42,289 bases of DNA from Eubacteriales bacterium (GCA_045634705.1 JAZRAU010000061.1:1-42289), one strand, 5' to 3'; positions 4,169 to 42,289 are shown, counted from the stretch's first letter. The notes: generated from the sequence alone by a model not told the origin. Numbers and translations are program-made.

Positions 4169-4179
4169 AGTAGGGCTTG

Positions 4180-4372
4180 ATGTGCGATGAAGCGAAAGGT
4201 TGCTACCGCCCCTGGGTAGGGAATTTTCGTGGAGTATGTCCGAATAACCGGGCGAAGTCGATGTGTGAAGGGAACACACCGCCTTGCCGTTTCCGGAATT
4301 GCGTGAAAGCAATCCGGCTTCTTTCGGGAGGCCAAAGGAACGCGCGGCAGGGTGTTAACAATGACAGCCCTC
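4180..4372 (+). ncRNA. Structured S10 (rpsJ) operon 5' leader, putative ribosomal-protein leader
   Basis: GATGAAGCGAAAGGTTGC...TTTTCGTGGAG...GGGCGA resembles the Firmicutes rpsJ leader as I recall it; additional stems at 4281-4353. Confidence 0.55.
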
Positions 4373-30806: not shown

Positions 30807-33320
30807 TTACTGTTTGCCGGGGCCCGCGGTGTCGGAGCCGTCGCCCACAAGGCCAAGGCGGCGCGCGGCGTCCTCGCGCATCTTGTATTTGAGGACCTTT
30901 CCCGCCGCGTTCATTGGGAAGCTGTCAACAAATTCGATGTACTTCGGTACCTTATGCCGCGCCATGCTGGCACGGATATAGGCCGACATCTCGTCAACCG
31001 TAATGCTGCCTGGCTCCTTGAGGATGATGCACGCCATGATCTCCTCGCCGTACCGCTTGTCGGGAACGCCGATGACCTGAACGTCCTTGGTCATGGGGTG
31101 GGTGTAGATGAATTCCTCGATCTCCTTCGGGTAGATGTTCTCGCCGCCGCGGATGATCATGTCCTTAAGGCGCCCTGTGATGCGGTAGTTGCCGTCCTCA
31201 TCGCGCGAGGCCAGGTCCCCCGAGTGGGGCCAGCCATCCGCGTCGATCGTACCCTTGGTGGCACCGGGCATCTTGTAATAGCCCTTCATGGTGTTGTAGC
31301 CCTTGGCGCAGAACTCGCCGTTCACGCCGGGGCCGACCTCCTCACCCGTCTCAGGGTCGATGACCTTGCACATCACGTGCGGGAAGGCATAGCCGACCGT
31401 CTCGGTACGCACGTCAAGGGGATCGGTCCACGAGCTCATCGTGTTGCCGGGGGCGCACTCGGTCTGGCCGTAAACGCTGACAATGCCCGTCATGTTCATC
31501 TCCGAGGGATCGGCGGCGCGGCGCATCAGCTCGGGCGGACACCCTGCCCCCGCCATGATGCCCGTCCGCATATGCGAGAAGTCGGTCTTGCGGTAGTTCG
31601 GGTGGTTGAACATCGCAATGAACATGGTGGGAACGCCGTTAAAGCAGGTGATCTTCTCCTCGTTAATGCAGGCCAGCGAGGACTTGGCGGAGAAGTAGGG
31701 CATCGGGCACATGGTGGTGCCGTGCGTCATCGAGGACGTCATGGAAAGCGTCATACCGAAGCAGTGGAACATCGGGACCTGGATCATCATGCGGTCGGCC
31801 GTGGAAAGCCCCATGCGGTCGCCGATGCACTTGCCGTTGTTGACCACGTTGTAGTGGGTCAGCATGACCCCCTTCGGGAAGCCCGTGGTGCCCGAGGTGT
31901 ACTGCATATTGCAAACGTCGGAGGGGCGGACGGCCGCGGCCATACGCGCCACCTCGGCGCGGCTGACGAGAGACGAGCGCGCCATGGCCTCCTCAAAGGA
32001 GAGACAGCCCTCCTGACGGAAGCCCACCGTAATGACGTTGCGGAGGAAGGGAAGCTTCTTGCAATGCAAGGGCTCACCCGGCACCGTATCGCGGATCTCG
32101 GGGCAGAGGGTATTGATGATCTCACGGTAGTTCGAGTCAAGACAGCTTTCGATCATCACGAGGGTATGCGTGTCCGACTGACGGAGCAGGTACTCCGCCT
32201 CGTGGATCTTGTAGGCGGTGTTGACCGTCACCAGAACGGCGCCCAGCTTCACCGTCGCCCAGAAGGTGATGTACCATGCGGGCAGGTTCGTGGCCCACAC
32301 AGCCACCTTGGAGCCGGCCTTGACGCCCAGCGAGACGAGCGCGCGCGCAAAGCGGTCCACATCCTCGCGGAATTCGGCGTAGGTGCGGGTGTAATCGAGC
32401 GTCGTGTACTTGAAGCAGTATTGGTCGGGGAACTCGTCCGCCACGCGGTCCAGCACCTGGGAGAAGGTCAGATCGATCAGCTCGTCCTTCTTAAAGACGT
32501 ACTGTCCCGTGCCGTCGTGGTTAAAATAGAGCGTCTTCTTCATATCCCTTGTCGAATGGAAGCGGGACATGTAGTTGACAAAATGCGGAAAAATGATCTC
32601 GGGGTCGTCAAGGCCTGTGAGCCACTCGGGCTTCCATTCCAGCGAGATAAAGGCATCGTAGTTTACCGAGGACAGCGCCCGCACCACGTCGTCGATCGGC
32701 ATCGTACCCTCGCCGATCAGCTGGTAGGCCCCCGCATCGTCCGAGTCGCGCAGATGCACGTGTGCGACGTAAGCGCCAAGGTTCTTAATGGTGTCATCGG
32801 CCGACTCGCCGTGGTCACGGTACGGGTGGTGGACGTCCCACAAAGCGCCGAGGCTGTCGCTTGCAAAGCGATCAAGCATCGCGCGCAGGCGTGCGGTGTC
32901 GGCATAGATGCCGCTCGTTTTCAACAGCACGCTGACCCCCGCTGCCTCCGCCGCGGGGAGCAGGGCGGTGAGGGCGGCCTCCACAGCCCCCTCATCCTCG
33001 TGCAGGGCGCACACCGTCACGTATGGCACGCGCGTGTTGCGCGCCACCTCGATAAGCCCCAGCGCCGTCGCTGTGGCCTCGGCATCGGCCGAGATGTCCA
33101 GCGAGGTGTCAAAGCAGGGGATCGAAAGCCCTCTCTCGCGCAGCTCGCGCGCGGTGGCGGCGGTGTTGTACTTATGGAAGGGGCCGCCGCGCTCCATCAT
33201 CGGATCAAAGCGGGGAAGGTTGTAGACCTCAACGCCCGCAAAGCCCATGGCAACGGCGGTGTCCAGCATCTCGGAAAAGGAGAGGCCTGGCCACCCTCTG
33301 GTAGAAAAGGAAAGCTTCAT
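30807..33320 (-). CDS. Fusion of a xylose-isomerase-like TIM barrel and an AMP-forming acyl-CoA synthetase
   Basis: About 255 N-terminal aa with GFAGVE, WDVHH, HVHLRD, GEG, SLEW; C-terminal ANL motifs YTSGTTGFPKG, YGQTE, SGD, GRLKDMIIRGGENIYP, GKVLK. Confidence 0.88.
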   Translation of the reverse strand: MKLSFSTRGWPGLSFSEMLDTAVAMGFAGVEVYNLPRFDPMMERGGPFHKYNTAATARELRERGLSIPCFDTSLDISADAEATATALGLIEVARNTRVPYVTVCALHEDEGAVEAALTALLPAAEAAGVSVLLKTSGIYADTARLRAMLDRFASDSLGALWDVHHPYRDHGESADDTIKNLGAYVAHVHLRDSDDAGAYQLIGEGTMPIDDVVRALSSVNYDAFISLEWKPEWLTGLDDPEIIFPHFVNYMSRFHSTRDMKKTLYFNHDGTGQYVFKKDELIDLTFSQVLDRVADEFPDQYCFKYTTLDYTRTYAEFREDVDRFARALVSLGVKAGSKVAVWATNLPAWYITFWATVKLGAVLVTVNTAYKIHEAEYLLRQSDTHTLVMIESCLDSNYREIINTLCPEIRDTVPGEPLHCKKLPFLRNVITVGFRQEGCLSFEEAMARSSLVSRAEVARMAAAVRPSDVCNMQYTSGTTGFPKGVMLTHYNVVNNGKCIGDRMGLSTADRMMIQVPMFHCFGMTLSMTSSMTHGTTMCPMPYFSAKSSLACINEEKITCFNGVPTMFIAMFNHPNYRKTDFSHMRTGIMAGAGCPPELMRRAADPSEMNMTGIVSVYGQTECAPGNTMSSWTDPLDVRTETVGYAFPHVMCKVIDPETGEEVGPGVNGEFCAKGYNTMKGYYKMPGATKGTIDADGWPHSGDLASRDEDGNYRITGRLKDMIIRGGENIYPKEIEEFIYTHPMTKDVQVIGVPDKRYGEEIMACIILKEPGSITVDEMSAYIRASMARHKVPKYIEFVDSFPMNAAGKVLKYKMREDAARRLGLVGDGSDTAGPGKQ

Positions 33321-34726
33321 TCTACTTCTTCCTCATAAACGATTTTGTTGAGCGCGGAAAGGTAGGCCTCAATGCCCGCCCCCACGATGTCGGTGGAAAT
33401 GCCGCGGCCCGAATAGACCTTGCCGCCCGAACGGAGCTTGACAACGGTCTGTCCCATGGCCTCGCGGCCCTCGGTCACGGCCTGCAGCTGGAAGTCGTCC
33501 AGCTCGTAATGACAGCCCGTGATCTTCTCAATGGCCTGAAACGCCGCGTCGATCGAGCCGTCACCGATGTAAACACCCTCCGCGGTCACACCCCTCTTCG
33601 AGAGCTTGATGTGGGCCGTGGCGGAAATGGTATTGCCCGAGGTGATGACGTAGGTATCCAGCTTATAGGTCGAGGGCACCTGCATGGCGGAGGAGGCCAC
33701 AATGGCGTCCAGCTCCTTAAGGGTTACCCTCTCCTTTTTCTCGGCGATCTGACGGAAGGCGGCAAAGACGCTGGCAGTGTCCTCGGCCGAGAGATCGTAG
33801 CCAAGCTTCTCGGCGGCGGCGCTCACAGCGGCCGCATCGTCATGCGCGGTCAGAAAGATGTCGGCTCCCTCATGCTCGGAGAGGGGCGCCGCGGCGGTCT
33901 TGCCCTTGCCCGCTTGGCAGAATCTTGTGATCTGATCAATGATGCGGGAGAGCTGCGTCGTGCGGATCGTCGTGGCGACTTCCAGCGCCTCCCCCTTGGC
34001 AGACAGAACGCGTGCCACGTTGGAGAGCGAGGCACAGGATATTGGATGCGCCGCCGCGCGGAGCTGGCCCGCGCCTGCGGTCAGGGCGGCGATCGCACAG
34101 GCGTCCGCCATGGCAATGGTGTTGGCGGTGGCAACGCCCAGCGTGACCTCCGAGAGGGCAGGGAGGACGGCGTACTGCGCCCTGATGAAGTCGGCAAGCT
34201 CGGTGGGGAGCATGGTGCCCGCCGTATCGCAAAGCGTGACGGTGGCGGCCCCCGCCGCGATCGCGGCCGCTATAACCTCGGAAAGGAAGGCGGGCTCACT
34301 GCGTGTGGCGTCCTCGGCGATGAATTCCACGTCGGAGCAGAGGGCGCGCGCGGCGGCCACCGTTTCGCGGACGGCCTCGATCATCGCCTCGGGCTTCTTG
34401 TGAAGGAGGTACTCCACCCCCACGGTGCTGGTCGGCACCGTGACCTGCAAGCGCGGGTGACGGGCCTTCGAGAGGGCGTTCCACGTTCTCTCAACGCTCT
34501 CTCGGTTTAGCTCCACGGGAACGGCCACTGTGCTCTCATTCACCGCCGCGGCGATCGACTTGATCTGCAAAGCGTCGGTGCGGGCGTCCTTGATGCCCTC
34601 AAGCTCAATGATGTCGACCCCCAACCTGTCAAGAAGCTTCGAGAGCTCGATCCTCTCCTTAAAGGACAGGCGGAACTCCTCCGAGGTCTCCTTCATGGTC
34701 GCATCGCTGATCCGTATCGGCTTCAT
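33317..34726 (-). CDS. LeuA (2-isopropylmalate synthase)-like protein with a degenerate catalytic site and intact C-terminal regulatory domain
   Basis: LDRLGVDIIE, VEFIAEDATRS, CDTAG and C-terminal GDGSIDA, STDIV..AYLSALN are retained; RDGEQ and HxH are absent. Confidence 0.85.
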   Translation of the reverse strand: MKPIRISDATMKETSEEFRLSFKERIELSKLLDRLGVDIIELEGIKDARTDALQIKSIAAAVNESTVAVPVELNRESVERTWNALSKARHPRLQVTVPTSTVGVEYLLHKKPEAMIEAVRETVAAARALCSDVEFIAEDATRSEPAFLSEVIAAAIAAGAATVTLCDTAGTMLPTELADFIRAQYAVLPALSEVTLGVATANTIAMADACAIAALTAGAGQLRAAAHPISCASLSNVARVLSAKGEALEVATTIRTTQLSRIIDQITRFCQAGKGKTAAAPLSEHEGADIFLTAHDDAAAVSAAAEKLGYDLSAEDTASVFAAFRQIAEKKERVTLKELDAIVASSAMQVPSTYKLDTYVITSGNTISATAHIKLSKRGVTAEGVYIGDGSIDAAFQAIEKITGCHYELDDFQLQAVTEGREAMGQTVVKLRSGGKVYSGRGISTDIVGAGIEAYLSALNKIVYEEEVE

Positions 34727-34756: not shown

Positions 34757-35021
34757 AAAGAAAAAAGCCCTGAGCCGCCAAGCGGCCTCAGGGACGAATT
34801 TACATTCGCGGTACCACCCTGATTATCCCCCCAAAAAGGGAAATCACTCATAGGCCCCCACCAGGGCCCCGCCCGATCACGGGGGCTGCCGTGTCTTATT
34901 ACTCGCTTATCGCTTTGACAAGACCGACTCGGGAAGGAGATCGCCCTGACCGTCCGCATCGGCTCGCACCAACCGCCGACTCTCTGTGGCATCCGAAAAG
35001 GGTGAATTTTCCGTCAACGTC
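34757..35021 (-). promoter_or_regulatory. T-box riboswitch with Leu (CUC) specifier and terminator
   Basis: Stem I with AGAGAG and GGTGCGAG apex; CTC at 34939-34937; T-box AATCAGGGTGGTACCGCG (34824-34807); terminator stem 34768-34793 followed by a U-tract. Confidence 0.88.
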
Positions 35022-35047
35022 TTTTATTCAAGGTAATTAACACGAAT

Positions 35048-35201: not shown

Positions 35202-35222
35202 CCATATATAATCGAATAGAAA

Positions 35223-35479
35223 GACTGTGACGAAGACGGTACGGCAACGCAAGCTTTCAGAGAGTCGGCGGTTGGTGTGAGCCGATATCTTGGTGCCAAG
35301 TACCCATCACTTCCGAGTCGAGGGCCTGAGCGTTTGTTAGGGCACTCCGTTTCCCGCGTTAAGGGTGAGGGCTTGCTGGAGTCCAAGAGTGGCGGTCATT
35401 CCGCAATTTGAGTGGTACCGCGGGTATGTTATACTCGTCTCAAGAATTTTTTCTTGGGACGTATTTTTATTTCATTTTT
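35223..35479 (+). promoter_or_regulatory. T-box riboswitch with Ile (AUC) specifier and terminator
   Basis: Stem I at 35223-35319; ATC at 35306-35308 in the loop between the GTAC and CTTC helices; T-box AATTTGAGTGGTACCGCG (35405-35422); terminator 35436-35461 followed by a U-rich tract. Confidence 0.9.
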
Positions 35480-35502
35480 ATTAAACGAAAGGAAAGTCGC
35501 TT

Positions 35503-37764
35503 ATGGAAAACGGAAGAAATCAGCTGCAAAAGATCGCGCTGCGTATTCGGGAGATGCGTGAGATTATTGGCCACAGCGAGAGCGAAATGGCGGCACTTAC
35601 CGACGTTTCCGTGGAGGCGTATCGCTCCTACGAGTCGGGGGACGTGGATCTTCCCTTTACCTTTGTGCATAAATTCTCCAAGGTGTGCGGCGTGGAGATG
35701 ACCGACATTTTGGAGGGCCACAGCGCCAAGCTCAGCGGCTACACGGTGACGCGCCGCGGCGAGGGGCTGACCACCGCCAGCGAGGACGGCATCACCATTC
35801 AGGATATGGCCCCCCTGTTCCGCAAAAAGCTGGCCACGCCCTACTGGGTGACTTACCGCTATTCCGAGGCGCTGCAAAAGGCGCCCATTCATACCACGAC
35901 GCACGCCGGCCAGGAGTTTGATATGGTCGTCAGGGGCGCCATGCGCATCCGTATCGGTGAGCGCGAGGAGATCCTGCGCGAGGGCGACAGCATCTTCTTC
36001 AAGTCCTCCACCCCCCACGGTATGATCGCCATTGACGGTGAGGACTGCGTTTTTCTTGCGATGATCATGGCAAGCGATGCCACCGATCAGCCGATGTACA
36101 TTGGTGAGCGTGGAACGCTCGCTTCGGAAAAGTCTCTGCTTTGCGAGAAGTTCATCGAGCCGAAGGAGGACGAGAACGGCGCGCTTGTCGATATCTCCTT
36201 CAAGAATGCCGACAGCTATAACTTCGCCTTTGACACGGTGGATGAGATCGCTCGCCGTGAGCCGGAAAAGCTCGCTATGGTCCACGTGGCGAACGATATG
36301 ACCGAGCGCCGCTTCACCTTCAAGGACATGAAGGACGCCTCCTCCCAGTGCGCCAACTACTTCAAGTCGATTGGCATCAAGCGCGGTGATCGCGTGATGC
36401 TGGTGCTGAAGCGCCACTATCAGTTCTGGTTTGCCATTCTCGGCCTTCACAAGCTGGGGGCTGTGGCCATTCCCGCCACCAACCAGCTAATGGAGCACGA
36501 CTTCACCTACCGCTTCCGCGCGGCGGGCGTCAACGCCATTCTCTGCACGGCAGACGGTGAGACCGCCCACCAGGTGGAGCTTGCCGAGCGCGAATACGGC
36601 GCCCCCCTCACCAAGGTGCTTGTGGGCGGCGAGCGTGAGGGGTGGCACGCCTTTGATGGGGAATATCCCCTTTTCAGCCGCCGCTACGTGCGTGAGGAAA
36701 ATGCTCCTGCGGGCAATGACCCCATGCTGATGCTCTTTACCTCGGGTACCACGGGCTACCCCAAAATGGCGATGCACTCCTACAAGTACGCCCTCGGCCA
36801 TTACGTCACGGCGCGCTATTGGCACCTTTGCCGTCCCGACGGTCTGCACTTCACGATCTCTGAGACGGGCTGGGGCAAGGCACTCTGGGGCAAGCTGTAC
36901 GGCCAGTGGCTCCCGGAGGGGGCGGTGTTCGTTTACGACTTTGACCGCTTCGATTCGCAGAAGATCCTGCCGATGTTTGCAAAATACGGCATCACGACCT
37001 TCTGTGCTCCGCCCACCATGTACCGTATGCTCATCAAGCAGGACCTCAGCCAATACGACCTCTCGTCGATCCGCCATGCCACCACCGCAGGCGAGGCGCT
37101 GAATCCCGAGGTGTTCTACCAGTTTGAAAAGGCCACGGGCCTCCGCATCGCCGAGGGCTTCGGTCAGACCGAGATGACGCTGGGAATCGCAAACCTCTTT
37201 GGCACTCAGCTCAAGCCCGGCGCTATGGGCAAGCCGGTTCCCGGCTACGGCATCGACCTTGTGGATACCGACGGCAACCCTGTGCCCGACGGCGTGAACG
37301 GCGAGATCGTTATCCGCACCGAGCGTGGGCAGTCCTGCGGTGTCTTCCTTGGCTACTATCTCAACGAGGAGGCCACGGCGAACGTTTGGCACGACGGCAT
37401 GTACCACACGGGCGATCTTGCGTGGCGCGATGAGGACGGCTATTTCTGGTATGTCGGCCGCGCCGATGACGTCATTAAGTCGTCGGGCTACCGTATCGGG
37501 CCGTTTGAGATCGAGTCCACCATCATGGAGCTGCCTTACGTCCTTGAGTGCGGCGTTTGCGCCGCGCCCGATGAGGTCAGGGGCCAGGTCGTCAAGGCGT
37601 GCATCGTCCTTGTGCCGGGCACCGAGGGCACCGAGGAGCTGAAAAAGGAGATCCAGAACTACGTCAAGCTCCATACGGCTCCCTACAAGTACCCCCGCAT
37701 CGTCGAGTTCCGCAAGGAGCTGCCGAAGACGATCAGCGGCAAGATCATCAGAAATAAGCTCTGA
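35503..37764 (+). CDS. Fusion of an XRE HTH-cupin domain and a medium/branched-chain acyl-CoA synthetase (paralogue 1)
   Basis: HTH (IREMRE...YESG), cupin (HAGQE...GDSIFF..STPHG), ANL motifs FTSGTTGYPK, GWGKALWGKLYGQW, GFGQTE, TGD, GRADDVIKSSGYRIGP, PKTISGK. Confidence 0.9.
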   Translation: MENGRNQLQKIALRIREMREIIGHSESEMAALTDVSVEAYRSYESGDVDLPFTFVHKFSKVCGVEMTDILEGHSAKLSGYTVTRRGEGLTTASEDGITIQDMAPLFRKKLATPYWVTYRYSEALQKAPIHTTTHAGQEFDMVVRGAMRIRIGEREEILREGDSIFFKSSTPHGMIAIDGEDCVFLAMIMASDATDQPMYIGERGTLASEKSLLCEKFIEPKEDENGALVDISFKNADSYNFAFDTVDEIARREPEKLAMVHVANDMTERRFTFKDMKDASSQCANYFKSIGIKRGDRVMLVLKRHYQFWFAILGLHKLGAVAIPATNQLMEHDFTYRFRAAGVNAILCTADGETAHQVELAEREYGAPLTKVLVGGEREGWHAFDGEYPLFSRRYVREENAPAGNDPMLMLFTSGTTGYPKMAMHSYKYALGHYVTARYWHLCRPDGLHFTISETGWGKALWGKLYGQWLPEGAVFVYDFDRFDSQKILPMFAKYGITTFCAPPTMYRMLIKQDLSQYDLSSIRHATTAGEALNPEVFYQFEKATGLRIAEGFGQTEMTLGIANLFGTQLKPGAMGKPVPGYGIDLVDTDGNPVPDGVNGEIVIRTERGQSCGVFLGYYLNEEATANVWHDGMYHTGDLAWRDEDGYFWYVGRADDVIKSSGYRIGPFEIESTIMELPYVLECGVCAAPDEVRGQVVKACIVLVPGTEGTEELKKEIQNYVKLHTAPYKYPRIVEFRKELPKTISGKIIRNKL

Positions 37765-37801
37765 TGCCGAATTTTGGCCTGCGGTGACGCCGAATTGACT
37801 A

Positions 37802-37831
37802 TTGACAATTCTTGCTCTATTCTAGTATAAT
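37802..37831 (+). promoter_or_regulatory. SigA-type promoter for paralogue 2 and the vor genes
   Basis: TTGACA-18 nt-TATAAT. Confidence 0.7.
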
Positions 37832-37876
37832 GTATATTATACGACAAGGACCGCAGTTTGTTTTTTGAGGTGTAAC

Positions 37877-40165
37877 GTGAACGAAAACCTGAATGGTATG
37901 GAAAAAAAGCTCCATGCGATCGCCGCCCGTGTGAAGGACCTGCGTCAGATCACGGGGCTTTCGGTGGAGGAAATGGCCGCCCGTACGGGCATCAGCGCCG
38001 AGGAGTATGAGCAGTGTGAGGCGGGCAACCGCAACCTCAGCATTGCGTTTCTCTATCACTGCGCGCTGAGCTTTGGCGTGGATATGGCCGATATCCTGGA
38101 GGGCCGCAGCCCCACCCTGCGCTCCTATGCTCTCACACGCCGCGGCGAGGGCCAGCGCTTTGAGGAGGCCCACGATATGGTGGGCTTCAACCTCGCGTCG
38201 GGATTCCGCAACCGTATCGCCCTGCCCCTTTACATGGAGCTGAACTATCGGGAGGGCGCGGAGAATGAGCCGATCGAGCTTGTGACTCACGAGGGCCAGG
38301 AGTGCGACATCGTCATCCGCGGCAGAATGAAGATCAGGATCGGTGAGCACACCGAGGTCCTTTCCGAGGGCGACTGCATTTATTACGATTCGGGCACGCC
38401 TCACGGCATGGTGGCTGTGGGGGGCGAGGATTGCACCTTCTATGCGATCGTTCTCCGCAACCAGGCCGCCCGAGAGGGAGAGCCTGAGGCCGCCGCGCTT
38501 TCGATCACCACCAAGCGCCGTGGCGAGGACGGCGAGCGCCGCATCTATCAGGATTTCATCATCCCCACCGAGGAGAACGGCGTTCTCACAAAGATCGCCT
38601 TCAAGAACGAGGAGTCCTTCAACTTCGCCTTTGACGTTGTCGATGCCCTCGGCAAAAGAAAGCCCGATAAGCTGGCCATGCTGCACGTCAGCGCTGACGG
38701 CACCGAGCGCCGCTTCACCTTCGCGGATATGAAGAAGGAGTCGGCGAGAGTCGCCAACTACTTCAAGTCGATCGGCATTGGCCGCGGCGACCGCGTGATG
38801 CTGGTGCTCAAGCGCCATTACCAGTTCTGGTTCTCGATCCTTGCCTTACATAAGCTGGGCGCCGTGGCGATCCCTGCCCCCAATCAGCTTCTTGAAAAGG
38901 ATTTTGCCTACCGCTTTGCGGCGGGGAACATCAAGGCGATCGTCTGCACGGCGGACGGTGAGGTCGCGGACGCCGTCGACAAGGCCGCCGTTGGCTGTGA
39001 GTGCCTCTCGCATAAGATCCTTGTGGGCGGCAAGCGTGACGGCTGGCGTGACTTCAACGAGGAATACGGCATGTACAGCAGCCACTTTGCCCGTACCGCC
39101 GATACCCCCTCGGGCAGCGACCCGATGCTGATGTTCTTCACCTCGGGCACCTCAGGCTACCCGAAGATCGCCGCGCACAATTACAAGTACCCTCTCGGAC
39201 ACTTCATCACTGCCAGGTATTGGCACCAGGTGAATCCCGAGGGACTTCACCTCACCATTTCGGATACGGGCTGGGCAAAGGCCATGTGGGGCAAGATGTA
39301 CGGCCAGTGGCTGTGCGAGGCTGCCAACTTCGTCTATGACTTTGACCGCTTTGATGCCGAAAAGATCCTGCCCCTCTTCAAGAAGTACAACATCACCACC
39401 TTCTGTGCGCCTCCCACCATGTACCGTATGCTCATCAAGCAGGACCTTGGCCGCTTTGATCTTTCGAGCATCGAGCACGCATCCACCGCGGGCGAGGCCC
39501 TGAACCCCGAGGTCTTCCGTCAGTTTGAAAAGCACACGGGCCTTAAGATCATGGAGGGCTTCGGCCAGTCCGAAAGCACCCTGATCGTCGGCAACCTCGC
39601 GGGCGGCAGCCATAAGATCGGCTCAATGGGTAAGCCCGTTCCGCTGTATGACGTCCGCCTTCTGAACACCGAGGGTGAGGAGGTTGCCAGCGGTGAGAGC
39701 GGTGAGATCTGCATCAGCATCAGGGAAGGCCTGCCCTGTGGCCTTGCCTACGCCTACGAGGGCAATCCCGAGATCACGGCCGAGACCTGGCGTGACGGCT
39801 ATTACCACACGGGGGACCTCGCGTGGCGCGATGAGGACGGCTTCCTCTGGTACGTCGGCCGTGCCGATGACGTCATCAAGTCGTCGGGCTACCGCATCGG
39901 TCCCTTTGAGATCGAAAACGTCATTATGGAGCTGCCGTACGTCCTTGAGTGCGGCGTGTCCGCCGCCCCCGATGAGATCCGCGGTCAGGTCGTTAAGGCC
40001 AGCATCGTGCTTGTCAAGGGCACCGAGGGCACGGACGAGCTGAAAAAGGAGATCCAGAATTACGTCAAGTCCCGTACCGCTCCCTATAAGTACCCCCGCA
40101 TCGTGGAATTCAAGGATACCCTGCCGAAGACCACCAGCGGTAAGATCATCCGAAAATTGCTGTAA
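37877..40165 (+). CDS. Fusion of an XRE HTH-cupin domain and a medium/branched-chain acyl-CoA synthetase (paralogue 2)
   Basis: Same architecture as paralogue 1 (HEGQE, TPHG, FTSGTSGYPK, GFGQSE, PKTTSGK); GTG start after GAGGTG, with ATG 37898 as an alternative. Confidence 0.9.
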   Translation: MNENLNGMEKKLHAIAARVKDLRQITGLSVEEMAARTGISAEEYEQCEAGNRNLSIAFLYHCALSFGVDMADILEGRSPTLRSYALTRRGEGQRFEEAHDMVGFNLASGFRNRIALPLYMELNYREGAENEPIELVTHEGQECDIVIRGRMKIRIGEHTEVLSEGDCIYYDSGTPHGMVAVGGEDCTFYAIVLRNQAAREGEPEAAALSITTKRRGEDGERRIYQDFIIPTEENGVLTKIAFKNEESFNFAFDVVDALGKRKPDKLAMLHVSADGTERRFTFADMKKESARVANYFKSIGIGRGDRVMLVLKRHYQFWFSILALHKLGAVAIPAPNQLLEKDFAYRFAAGNIKAIVCTADGEVADAVDKAAVGCECLSHKILVGGKRDGWRDFNEEYGMYSSHFARTADTPSGSDPMLMFFTSGTSGYPKIAAHNYKYPLGHFITARYWHQVNPEGLHLTISDTGWAKAMWGKMYGQWLCEAANFVYDFDRFDAEKILPLFKKYNITTFCAPPTMYRMLIKQDLGRFDLSSIEHASTAGEALNPEVFRQFEKHTGLKIMEGFGQSESTLIVGNLAGGSHKIGSMGKPVPLYDVRLLNTEGEEVASGESGEICISIREGLPCGLAYAYEGNPEITAETWRDGYYHTGDLAWRDEDGFLWYVGRADDVIKSSGYRIGPFEIENVIMELPYVLECGVSAAPDEIRGQVVKASIVLVKGTEGTDELKKEIQNYVKSRTAPYKYPRIVEFKDTLPKTTSGKIIRKLL

Positions 40166-40174
40166 GAGATCGTT

Positions 40175-40843
40175 ATGGAAGATAAGCGCCTAACCCTGTT
40201 TGCAGGACACTACGGTAGCGGCAAAACCAATATTGCCGTAAACTATGCTTTGCATCTTGCGAAACAGGGACACAAGGTCTGCATTGCCGACCTTGACATC
40301 GTCAACCCCTATTTTCGCACCAAGGACAGCGCTGCCGAGCTTTCGGCGGCGGGGGTGCATCTCATCTCGCCGCAGTACGCCAACACCAACGTGGATCTGC
40401 CCGCCCTGCCGGCGGAAAGCTACCGCCTTGTGCAGGATAAGTCGATCTACGGCATCATGGATATCGGCGGTGATGACAGAGGCGCCTTTGCGCTCGGCCG
40501 CTTTGCCGACGCTGTTCGCGAGGAGGGGAATTACCGCATGGCCTTTGTGGTCAACTGCCACCGTCCCCTCACAAGCACGGTCAGCGATACCGTGGAAATC
40601 ATGAGAGAAATCGAGGCGGCCGCAGGCCTTGCCTTTACCGCCATTGTCAACAACTCAAACCTCGGCCCCGAGACCACGGAGGGGACGGTGCGCGCATCGC
40701 TCCCGTTTGTTTTTGAGCTGTGTCGCGTGACGGGGCTTCCGCTTTGGATGCACACGGCGATGCCCGCGGTAGCGGAGAAGCTCACGGAGCTTCCCGTGTT
40801 GCCCCTCACCCTGCAAAAGAAATACTTTGACCTGCCCGGCTGA
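40175..40843 (+). CDS. P-loop ATP-binding protein (MinD/ParA/SIMIBI-like), function unknown
   Basis: GHYGSGKT, IADLDIVNPYFR, DIGGDDRG. Confidence 0.8.
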   Translation: MEDKRLTLFAGHYGSGKTNIAVNYALHLAKQGHKVCIADLDIVNPYFRTKDSAAELSAAGVHLISPQYANTNVDLPALPAESYRLVQDKSIYGIMDIGGDDRGAFALGRFADAVREEGNYRMAFVVNCHRPLTSTVSDTVEIMREIEAAAGLAFTAIVNNSNLGPETTEGTVRASLPFVFELCRVTGLPLWMHTAMPAVAEKLTELPVLPLTLQKKYFDLPG

Positions 40844-40886
40844 CAGGATTGCCGAAACCGACAGGCTAACACAAGGAGGAGTATCC

Positions 40887-41093
40887 ATGCCAAAAGTAAC
40901 GTTCAAAACCGACCTTTGCAAGGGCTGCGGACTGTGCGTCAATGCCTGCCCGAAGGGCTGCCTTGCCATTGCGGAGGATAAGCTCAACCAGAAGGGCTAT
41001 TCCCCTGCGTTTATGAAGGAACAGGAAAAATGCATCGGCTGTGCTTTCTGTGCCACTATGTGCCCGGATTGCATCATCACGGTGGAAAAGTAA
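40887..41093 (+). CDS. 2[4Fe-4S] ferredoxin-like delta subunit of a 2-oxoacid:ferredoxin oxidoreductase
   Basis: CKGCGLCVNACP and CIGCAFCATMCPD; AGGAGG RBS. Confidence 0.9.
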   Translation: MPKVTFKTDLCKGCGLCVNACPKGCLAIAEDKLNQKGYSPAFMKEQEKCIGCAFCATMCPDCIITVEK

Positions 41094-41103
41094 GGAGACT
41101 ATC

Positions 41104-42165
41104 ATGGCAGAAAGAATTTTGATGAAGGGCAACGAGGCGATTGCCGAGGCCGCGATCCGCGCGGGTTGCCGTCACTATTTCGGGTATCCCATTACCCCCC
41201 AGACCGAGATCGCCGCGTACATGGCCAAAAAGATGCCGAAGATCGGCGGCGTGTTCCTTCAGGCTGAGAGTGAGATCGCGTCGATCAATATGGTGTACGG
41301 TGCCGCCGCCGCGGGTATGCGCGTGATGACATCGTCGTCGAGCCCCGGAATCTCCCTGAAGGCCGAGGGCCTCAGCTACATCGCCGGCTCGGATATCCCC
41401 GCCCTCGTTGTCAACGTTCAGCGCGGTGGCCCCGGCCTTGGCGGTATCCAGCCCTCGCAGTCGGATTATTTCCAGGCCACCAAGGGTGGCGGCCACGGCG
41501 ACTACCGCATGATCGTCCTGGCGCCTGCCTCGGTGCAGGAAATGGCCAGCCTGACGATCAAGGGCTTTGACCTTGCCGACAAGTATTGTGTCACCTCAAT
41601 GATCCTTGCCGACGGTACGATCGGCCAGATGATGGAGCCCATCACCTTTGAGGATGCCGAGCCCACCGTCTATGAAAAGCCCTGGGCCCTCACGGGCACC
41701 GAGGGGAAGCGCCCCCACAACGTTGTCAACTCGCTCTACTTGAAGCCCGATGAGCTGGAAAAGAAGAACTTTGAGCGCTTCGAGAAGTACAAGACGATCG
41801 AGGAGAACGAGTGCCTGTACGAGGAGTACATGATGGAGGATGCCGAGATCTGCGTTGTCGCGTTCGGCATCGCCTCGCGCGTGGCCAAGAACGCGGTGGT
41901 CGCCGCAAGAAGCGAGGGCATCAAGGTCGGTCTTATCCGTCCGATCACCCTTTGGCCCTTCCCCAAGGCGCCCCTTGCCAAGGCCGCCGATAAGGTCAAG
42001 GCGTTTGTCTCGGTCGAGCTCAGCATGGGCCAGATGATCGAGGACGTTCGCCTCGCCACCCAGTGCAAAAAGCCCGTGGCCCTCTGTAACCGCTGCGGCG
42101 GTATGATCCCCGGTCCCGATGAGGTGCTGGCGTCGATCAAGAAGGCCGAGAAAGGAGAGTTCTGA
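41104..42165 (+). CDS. vorB: 2-oxoacid:ferredoxin oxidoreductase alpha subunit (3-methyl-2-oxobutanoate dehydrogenase VorB-like)
   Basis: MKGNEAIAEAA, FGYPITPQTE, QAESE, TSSSSPG, RGGPGLG, QSDY, ELSMGQM. Confidence 0.85.
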   Translation: MAERILMKGNEAIAEAAIRAGCRHYFGYPITPQTEIAAYMAKKMPKIGGVFLQAESEIASINMVYGAAAAGMRVMTSSSSPGISLKAEGLSYIAGSDIPALVVNVQRGGPGLGGIQPSQSDYFQATKGGGHGDYRMIVLAPASVQEMASLTIKGFDLADKYCVTSMILADGTIGQMMEPITFEDAEPTVYEKPWALTGTEGKRPHNVVNSLYLKPDELEKKNFERFEKYKTIEENECLYEEYMMEDAEICVVAFGIASRVAKNAVVAARSEGIKVGLIRPITLWPFPKAPLAKAADKVKAFVSVELSMGQMIEDVRLATQCKKPVALCNRCGGMIPGPDEVLASIKKAEKGEF

Positions 42166-42168
42166 GCT

Positions 42169-42289
42169 ATGGCAGTCGTATTTGAAAAACCCAAGGCTCT
42201 GACCGATACTGTATTCCACTATTGCCCCGGCTGCCCCCACGGCATCATCCACCGTCTTGTGGCGGAGGTCATGGATGAGCTGGGCATCG
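42169..42289 (+). CDS. 2-oxoacid:ferredoxin oxidoreductase beta (TPP-binding) subunit, 5' part (truncated)
   Basis: [34 protein letters not shown]; CPGC motif; directly follows the alpha subunit. Confidence 0.85.

Follow-up and report, generated by a model that had tools for sequence, protein, structure and literature searches.

Why would a bacterium keep, behind a leucine T-box, an intact gene for a LeuA (2-isopropylmalate synthase) homologue whose catalytic motifs are missing? The gene lies on the minus strand at positions 33317–34726 of a 42,289-nucleotide contig from the Eubacteriales bacterium assembly GCA_045634705.1 (JAZRAU010000061.1:1-42289), the whole of which we refer to as the window. 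It starts with ATG and runs in an intact frame of 469 aa; we call its product dead LeuA. Our computational analysis indicates that dead LeuA belongs to a conserved protein family, that it is encoded together with an acyl-CoA synthetase fusion, and that it very probably works as a non-catalytic functional partner in the salvage of an amino acid.

Loss of the catalytic residues of LeuA

In its domains, dead LeuA is built like a LeuA. Pfam finds an HMGL-like barrel (PF00682, residues 16–260, E = 7.6e-32) and a LeuA_dimer domain (PF08502, residues 334–462, E = 2.4e-30). The AlphaFold2 (AF2) model of the protein, with a mean predicted local distance difference test score (pLDDT) of 87.8, has the (beta/alpha)8 pattern in the barrel, a disordered linker at residues 275–288 (pLDDT <50), a helical subdomain and then a domain of beta-beta-beta-alpha repeats. 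The top Foldseek matches of this model are the LeuA and methylthioalkylmalate synthase (MAMS) structures 6e1j, 3hps, 1sr9 and 3rmj. Pfam, AF2 and Foldseek together place dead LeuA among the LeuA proteins by its DRE-TIM barrel fold and C-terminal LeuA_dimer domain. All NCBIfam LeuA models match the protein at roughly half of their cut-offs (best 300.5 bits against 532); TIGR00973 gives 264.3 bits against a cut-off of 598.7, and dead LeuA falls outside the curated LeuA family (TIGR00973, PRK00915). The names given to it in the ESM Atlas are automatic and domain-based only.

We aligned dead LeuA to solved LeuA and MAMS chains (3rmj, 6e1j, 3ewb) and to canonical LeuAs from a library clustered at 50%. 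The motif DTTLRDGEQ corresponds to DATMK--ETSE, with Lys12 in the place of the Arg and either a gap or Glu13 in the place of the metal-binding Asp. HCHND corresponds to VATAN, where both metal-binding His residues are replaced (Ala199 and Ala201), and G(I/L)GERAGNA corresponds to PI----SCA, a four-residue deletion in the GERAGN loop. Subdomain I, about 27 residues that include HESGIHQDG and the general-base His, is deleted in all six members of the dead LeuA family that were aligned with four canonical LeuAs. The former metal-ligand and Asp positions vary across the family; the variability at the metal-ligand positions fits an abandoned site.

The weight of these losses can be judged from a LeuA homologue. 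Passages of a study of MAMS report that Asp90, His288 and His290 bind the essential metal, that replacement of Arg89 by Ala, Lys or Gln gives an inactive enzyme, and that His388 is the general base (PMC11532901). For isopropylmalate synthase itself, the accessory domain is reported to be essential for catalysis (passages of PMC9860122). Judged from its sequence, dead LeuA is a LeuA homologue without the catalytic machinery, in which none of the catalytic features of membership is present. Short-form LeuA (TIGR00973/PRK00915; 3rmj, 3ewb, 3eeg), which is among its best sequence and fold matches, has the same order of barrel, helical subdomain II and LeuA_dimer domain, but the Arg-Asp pair, His-x-His, four residues of the GERAGN loop and the whole of subdomain I are absent from dead LeuA.

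The regulatory domain aligns without gaps at 38–41% identity to the four canonical LeuAs, and the barrel aligns at 29–32%. A profile of the C-terminal domain matches the regulatory domain of Leptospira citramalate synthase (CimA; 3f6g/3f6h, E = 1.7e-4), the sole solved chain found, and a phmmer search of the PDB with this domain alone gave no match. The gene is divided on the minus strand into a degenerate DRE-TIM (HMGL-like) barrel (residues 1–270, 33917–34726; from Pfam, the alignments, the AF2 model and the selection analysis below), a variable linker in the place of subdomain I, followed by the start of helical subdomain II (residues 271–333, 33728–33916; from the alignment and the same analysis), and the LeuA_dimer regulatory domain (PF08502; residues 334–469 and the stop codon, 33317–33727), which is nearly invariant in the clade.

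Conservation of the dead LeuA family

A word-indexed search listed 120 clusters of 69–84% identity, nearly all of 458–470 aa (two are of 478 and 485 aa). The frames of the 76 orthologues taken from genome contigs are intact, with lengths of 459–470 aa. We estimated the ratio of nonsynonymous to synonymous substitution rates (dN/dS) by the Nei-Gojobori method from 300 random pairs of these 76 orthologues, at which synonymous sites are saturated. The ratio is 0.10 for the whole gene, 0.13 for the barrel, 0.23 for the linker and 0.04 for the regulatory domain. Pairs of orthologues are on average 64% identical over the barrel and 90% identical over the regulatory domain. Dead LeuA is a conserved family under strong purifying selection.

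The architecture extends well beyond these close relatives. An exhaustive search of 1.84 billion representatives (50% clustering) gave 5398 matches, of which we inspected the best 150 and found 114 to be full-length. Within these best 150, 106 of the 114 full-length rows are short forms of 453–497 aa, 29–55% identical, that have all of the losses in common; the other eight are longer (497–516 aa) and of canonical type, six of them keeping RDG(E/D/A)(Q/S), HxH and GERAGN or a close variant and two being partly altered. The barrel of dead LeuA also has invariant or near-invariant residues that are specific to the family (D8, T10, F22, S100, E105, Y106, K111, D139, R142, D167).

A first-pass annotation of the locus, made from the sequence alone, had claimed that the catalytic motifs were lost and that the 469-aa frame was intact with a well-conserved C-terminal regulatory domain. 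The alignment to LeuA and MAMS structures and canonical LeuAs agrees with the former claim, and the Pfam matches, the gapless alignment and the dN/dS values agree with the latter. One point had to be corrected, namely the strand, since the gene is on the minus strand. The check that it proposed, an orthologue alignment with a test for purifying selection, came out in its favor (dN/dS 0.10 overall). Its warning that a leuA label would mislead was justified: JGI calls some homologues '2-isopropylmalate synthase' and NCBI calls them 'hypothetical protein'.

Pairing with an acyl-CoA synthetase behind a leucine T-box

Dead LeuA overlaps the next gene by four nucleotides (ATGA). This open reading frame (ORF; 30807–33320, minus strand) encodes 837 aa, in which a barrel is fused to a complete AMP-forming acyl-CoA synthetase. 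The barrel, a xylose-isomerase-like TIM barrel, occupies residues 1–262 (32535–33320, minus strand; PF01261, E = 2e-19), and the synthetase occupies residues 281–837 (30807–32480, minus strand; PF00501, E = 1e-89, and PF13193). PRK12583 is the best NCBIfam model for the ligase (644.7 bits against a cut-off of 832). Its adenylate-forming motifs YTSGTTGFPKG, YGQTE, GRLKD and GK are invariant across 45 orthologues, and the synthetase domain has a dN/dS of 0.03. The AF2 model of the partner barrel has a pLDDT of 93, and its Foldseek matches are Art22, UlaE, AsbF and tagatose epimerases (template modelling scores of about 0.75–0.8). In the window clade the first metal-site Glu of this barrel is replaced by Lys (LVKTSG).

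The pairing of the two genes is close to strict. Of 76 orthologous loci, 73 retain the overlap. Of 80 close loci, 78 have the barrel::ligase fusion directly downstream of dead LeuA, and two are cut off at a contig edge. Among 399 Clostridia genomes scored, the 30 best dead LeuA loci at 40–50% identity represent many families, and in each of them the fusion is the next gene downstream. Dead LeuA never adjoins leuBCD in the loci examined. Both marks of the dead LeuA family, the same set of losses and the fusion directly downstream, are present in the window. We also looked for longer proteins in which dead LeuA and its partner are joined; there were none at E <= 1e-20, which is weak evidence. 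Complex prediction from paired alignments of 45 rows, for the whole of dead LeuA with partner residues 1–265, gave 0.02 against a mark of 0.32, a score that counts neither for nor against contact.

Upstream of dead LeuA is a T-box leader (34787–35026, minus strand; RF00230, 106.8 bits against a gathering threshold of 93) with the specifier CUC and a UGGU bulge that would pair with discriminator A. An intrinsic terminator, read from the sequence as a G+C-rich hairpin that overlaps the 3′ end of the T-box and is followed by a T run, is located at 34757–34793 on the same strand. The specifier position was calibrated on five other leaders of the genome (ACC, GUC, UGG, UUC, UCC); the other T-boxes of the genome precede serS, thrS (ACC), valS (GUC), a trpB-like gene (UGG) and a gene for a PaaK-like phenylacetate-CoA ligase (UUC). 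At the same position in relatives we read CUC (33), CUU (16) or CUG (15), together 64 of 75 loci, and this synonymous drift within CUN identifies a Leu codon. Eleven of the 75 have no T-box within 600 nt. By its score, Leu specifier, terminator and position directly upstream, the leader places the gene pair in the leucine T-box regulon.

The 11 relatives without a Leu T-box (loci L009, L010, L016, L019, L021–L024, L028, L029 and L038) do have the divergent T-box of the neighbouring operon.

The first-pass annotation had also described the 4-nt overlap with a downstream TIM-barrel/synthetase gene, the pairing with a co-translated synthetase and the Leu T-box, all of which we recover. Random decay without conserved pairing, which it had named as the outcome that would speak against it, did not occur: selection is strong and the pairing is conserved.

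Barrel::ligase fusions in genomes without dead LeuA

The ligase part alone was searched against 400 Clostridia genomes. We found a match at E <= 1e-120 in 202 of the 400, compared with 78 of 399 genomes that have a short-form dead LeuA. The best 150 ligase places, the window copy apart, are 62–74% identical, and 146 of the 150 lie in open frames of at least 784 aa. All 18 ligase loci sampled from genomes without dead LeuA contain the full barrel::ligase fusion, and no dead LeuA, oxidoreductase or aminotransferase was found within about 4 kb of these 18 fusions. We had considered the partner barrel as a docking platform that exists only together with dead LeuA; these fusions rule this out.

The fusions without dead LeuA have a leucine signal of their own. 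A T-box lies directly upstream in 10 of the 18, with the specifier CUC or CUU in all ten, compared with 2 of 20 distant dead LeuA loci, both from the order to which the window belongs (Fisher p = 0.0045, an overstatement because the loci are related). In the distant loci, this pattern fits two alternative ways of sensing leucine. The ligase fusion, being widespread and often behind its own Leu T-box, belongs to the leucine regulon independently.

The partner barrel differs between the two settings. All 18 fusions without dead LeuA have an intact putative metal tetrad in this barrel (ETxG, WDxH, xVHxKD, LEW), but only 9 of the 17 fusions with dead LeuA do; the tetrad is degenerate in the other 8, including the window copy (Glu to Lys), the counts coming from related genomes and not from independent events.

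Pathway genes and the host genome

The dead LeuA pair is hosted by rumen and hindgut Clostridia. In one of these genomes (G159), a single strand encodes dead LeuA, the ligase fusion, an Aminotran_4 protein, a ParA-like protein, the alpha, beta and gamma subunits of a 2-oxoacid:ferredoxin oxidoreductase, an HTH-cupin protein and a ligase, which is the gene set expected for conversion of an acid to acyl-CoA, 2-oxo acid and amino acid. Oxidoreductase and MbcS-like genes stand beside the pair in 7 of 16 distant loci of 14–17 kb.

The assembly that contains the window is 1.41 Mb in 101 contigs and 96% complete. No leuA, leuB or leuC in it scores over the family cut-offs, and it has one class IV aminotransferase. 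Weak matches to leu genes on its contig 6 are citrate-synthase-like DRE-TIM, aconitase-like and isocitrate-dehydrogenase-like genes, and the second DRE-TIM protein of the genome, of 476 aa (locus L003; G000 contig 6, 1360–2790), has homocitrate synthase as its best match, at 151 bits, far below the cut-off. This cluster looks like a branch of the Re-citrate-synthase type for glutamate and not like leucine genes. In 74 of 78 dead LeuA genomes we found only a single match to the family profile at E <= 1e-40, a profile that misses long-form LeuA. Two of the five dead LeuA genomes examined (G065, G292) have a citramalate synthase. The statement that dead LeuA genomes always lack a true LeuA was dropped once a long-form LeuA was found in another of the five (G017), and we keep it for the genome of the window only.

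In the window, the genes that adjoin the pair are read from the plus strand. A second, divergent T-box (35218–35445; RF00230, 93.1 bits against 93) has the specifier AUC (Ile). Downstream are two HTH-cupin::acyl-CoA synthetase fusions that resemble MbcS (35503–37764 and 37865–40165; Pfam HTH_3/HTH_19, Cupin_2 and AMP-binding), a ParA/CbiA-like P-loop protein (40175–40843; weak Pfam ParA/CbiA matches) and the oxidoreductase alpha subunit (41041–42165; POR_N, 4.9e-49; PFOR_II, 2.2e-25). At 42289 the contig stops, short of the beta and gamma subunit genes. This operon (35218–42165) is likely a route from 2-methylbutyrate and isobutyrate to isoleucine and valine.

It is unusual for an enzyme to carry a module made up of a DNA-binding part and a cupin. 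The module is ligase-fused in the window (35503–37764) and is a separate 183-aa ORF before the ligase in G159 (L132 16203–17408). The window and 7 of 16 distant loci alike conserve the ParA/CbiA-like gene immediately upstream of the oxidoreductase alpha gene, and in G159 it comes after the aminotransferase (L132 12925–13605); its product might deliver iron-sulfur clusters.

Two further leaders were found. A Phe (UUC) T-box lies directly upstream of the PaaK-like phenylacetate-CoA ligase gene (L086, G000 contig 28, 1501–3133; TIGR02155, 518.9 bits, below the cut-off of 646.3), and this is a parallel case of acid-to-amino-acid salvage, for phenylalanine. An S10-Clostridia ribosomal protein leader lies at 4178–4255 on the plus strand (RF03136, 43.5 bits), in the left part of the window, which is taken up by a ribosomal protein region.

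Discussion

We hold with high confidence that dead LeuA is a non-catalytic functional partner in a salvage pathway. The more specific proposal, that it is a leucine-sensing partner of an isovalerate-CoA ligase in cells that rebuild leucine from isovalerate, we regard as evenly poised; leucine as the ligand, contact with the ligase, isovalerate as the substrate and the direction of the effect are all inferred. In the first-pass annotation, dead LeuA was a repurposed leucine-sensing or acyl-CoA-binding partner that gives feedback control of the synthetase. A LeuA-derived, non-catalytic, selected protein that is paired and placed behind a Leu T-box stands from that interpretation; the synthetase is not dependent on dead LeuA, as the fusion also occurs alone, and nothing supports the acyl-CoA-binding alternative.

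The proposed pathway has a physiological precedent. Allison and co-workers are said to have described the carboxylation of isovalerate to leucine in rumen bacteria in 1962 and 1966. A passage and citations in PMC7356843 refer to a literature on the physiology of rumen bacteria in which acids are carboxylated to amino acids, including isovalerate to leucine. The ligases, 2-oxoacid:ferredoxin oxidoreductase and aminotransferase around the pair fit this route, for which the older work is physiological.

The two T-boxes of the window suggest how the acids may be divided among the ligases. MbcS of Staphylococcus aureus (NF047394) is the best family of both HTH-cupin ligases behind the Ile T-box, at 420 and 419 bits, below the cut-off of 850. 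According to passages of PMC10026030, MbcS activates 2-methylbutyrate and isobutyrate and hardly isovalerate (KM above 500 µM), which leaves isovalerate for a third, unrelated ligase behind the Leu T-box. The partner of dead LeuA belongs to a different subfamily (PRK12583-like), with about 25% identity to its MbcS-like neighbours, and two MbcS-like ligases under Ile control with a third ligase under Leu control for isovalerate fit this division. In S. aureus, MbcS feeds lipid synthesis and not amino-acid synthesis.

The CimA domain, which has been turned into an isoleucine biosensor (passages of PMC13381585), illustrates that LeuA regulatory domains can sense amino acids on their own. In Leptospira CimA the regulatory domain controls its own catalytic barrel in cis. 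As the barrel of dead LeuA is predicted to be inactive, any control by dead LeuA would have to act in trans on another protein.

In the mechanism that we propose, the barrel::ligase fusion would activate an acid, most likely isovalerate, to isovaleryl-CoA, the 2-oxoacid:ferredoxin oxidoreductase would reductively carboxylate isovaleryl-CoA to 2-oxoisocaproate, and the class IV aminotransferase would turn 2-oxoisocaproate into leucine. Uncharged tRNA-Leu would open transcription of dead LeuA and the ligase through the Leu T-box, and translational coupling would yield the two proteins together. On top of this, dead LeuA would exert control after translation. Its regulatory domain would bind leucine, and when leucine is plentiful, dead LeuA would contact the ligase and throttle the ATP-consuming entry step. 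A bolder version of this model, which we put forward only tentatively, is that the allosteric domain of LeuA has been released from its catalytic role and controls an unrelated adenylate-forming ligase in trans, as a leucine-gated valve at the entry of the isovalerate-to-leucine route. Across Clostridia, the valve and the Leu T-box would then be partly interchangeable. Where dead LeuA is present, the metal site of the partner barrel would be free to decay, a ligand-sensing or catalytic task of that barrel having passed to dead LeuA.

Several observations weigh against the proposal of a leucine-sensing ligase partner. Selection still acts on the barrel of dead LeuA (dN/dS 0.13), in which F22, E105, Y106 and K111 are conserved specifically in this family; a sensor domain on an inert stalk would leave these residues unexplained. 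In the window clade, 64 of 75 loci have both the T-box and dead LeuA, so the two are not simple alternatives. The barrel::ligase fusion is found without dead LeuA in many Clostridia genomes, full-length in all 18 sampled; the ligase is thus independent of dead LeuA, which is an accessory and not an obligatory subunit. Finally, one of the five dead LeuA genomes examined (G017) has a long-form LeuA and leuB, so that the module does not replace the de novo route in every genome.

Dead LeuA might instead be a structural partner that senses nothing, either a scaffold or assembly factor for the ligase, oxidoreductase and aminotransferase or a stabilizer of the ligase, with no ligand-dependent switching. 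The strict, translationally coupled pairing, the G159 operon with its aminotransferase and oxidoreductase, and a selected barrel with conserved residues of its own would all be expected of such a protein, and other DRE-TIM enzymes form channelling complexes, such as the aldolase-dehydrogenase pairs 1nvm, 4jn6 and 8ih7 that are among the fold matches. We nevertheless think a scaffold unlikely: no part of dead LeuA, the barrel included, is nearly as conserved as the amino-acid-binding regulatory domain (90% identity, dN/dS 0.04), just 7 of 16 distant loci have oxidoreductase and aminotransferase genes close to the pair, and many genomes carry the ligase fusion without dead LeuA.

If dead LeuA does sense a ligand, its regulatory domain could bind isoleucine, valine or 2-oxoisocaproate, or several of these, in place of leucine. 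Specificity in this domain is plastic, as the same domain binds isoleucine in citramalate synthase, and in many lineages the pair is encoded in one operon with enzymes for leucine, isoleucine and valine alike. A Leu-specific T-box precedes the pair both in the window clade and in two further families of its order, however, and separate MbcS-like ligases are under the Ile T-box, which makes another effector a rather poor candidate.

It is improbable that dead LeuA is still an enzyme, carrying out a new, metal-free chemistry on acyl-CoA or a 2-oxo acid or forming a composite active site with the partner barrel. The ten family-specific barrel residues could be read in this way, and the intact metal site of the partner in 18 of 18 fusions without dead LeuA, compared with 9 of 17 with it, gives a hint that the two barrels are functionally linked. 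Against this, the former metal-ligand and Asp positions vary in a way not expected of a remodelled active site, the general-base region is deleted in all members aligned, and the ligase does without dead LeuA in many genomes. Decay of a leuA pseudogene after loss of the leucine pathway, as might be imagined in a 1.41 Mb genome without leuB and leuC, is refuted by the intact frames of 76 orthologues (459–470 aa), a dN/dS of 0.10 at saturated synonymous sites, an architecture retained down to 29–55% identity in more than 100 clusters, and conserved gene order and translational coupling.

A leucine-sensing ligase partner would have analogues elsewhere in metabolism. HisZ, an inactive paralogue of histidyl-tRNA synthetase, is the regulatory subunit of the short-form ATP phosphoribosyltransferase. 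By analogy, dead LeuA may be an inactive paralogue of an enzyme that recognises the amino acid of the pathway, recruited to regulate a committed-step enzyme allosterically. The two cases have unrelated folds and partners, and HisZ is required by its partner, whereas the ligase fusion exists without dead LeuA. Brassica MAMS (6e1j), the top structural match of dead LeuA, was likewise derived from LeuA by the loss of a module. It forms a mirror image, since MAMS lost the regulatory domain and kept catalysis (passages of PMC11532901) and dead LeuA did the reverse.

In a literature search that did not extend to subscription journals and supplements, we found no account of an isopropylmalate synthase pseudoenzyme, and no assignment of a gene to the step of isovalerate activation, to its control or to a LeuA-like partner. 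Bacteria of the rumen and hindgut have been known since the 1960s to make leucine, isoleucine, valine and phenylalanine from fermentation acids, and the locus described here provides a full candidate gene set for such an acid-to-amino-acid route. It also provides an unusual candidate regulator, a predicted pseudoenzyme derived from the enzyme that normally commits carbon to leucine. Automated annotation of the gene as leuA would lead genome-scale metabolic models to predict leucine prototrophy wrongly in genomes that, like this one, lack the de novo leucine pathway. If dead LeuA does sense leucine, it would provide a new case of a sensor made from an enzyme of the pathway, and would offer a ready-made leucine-binding module.

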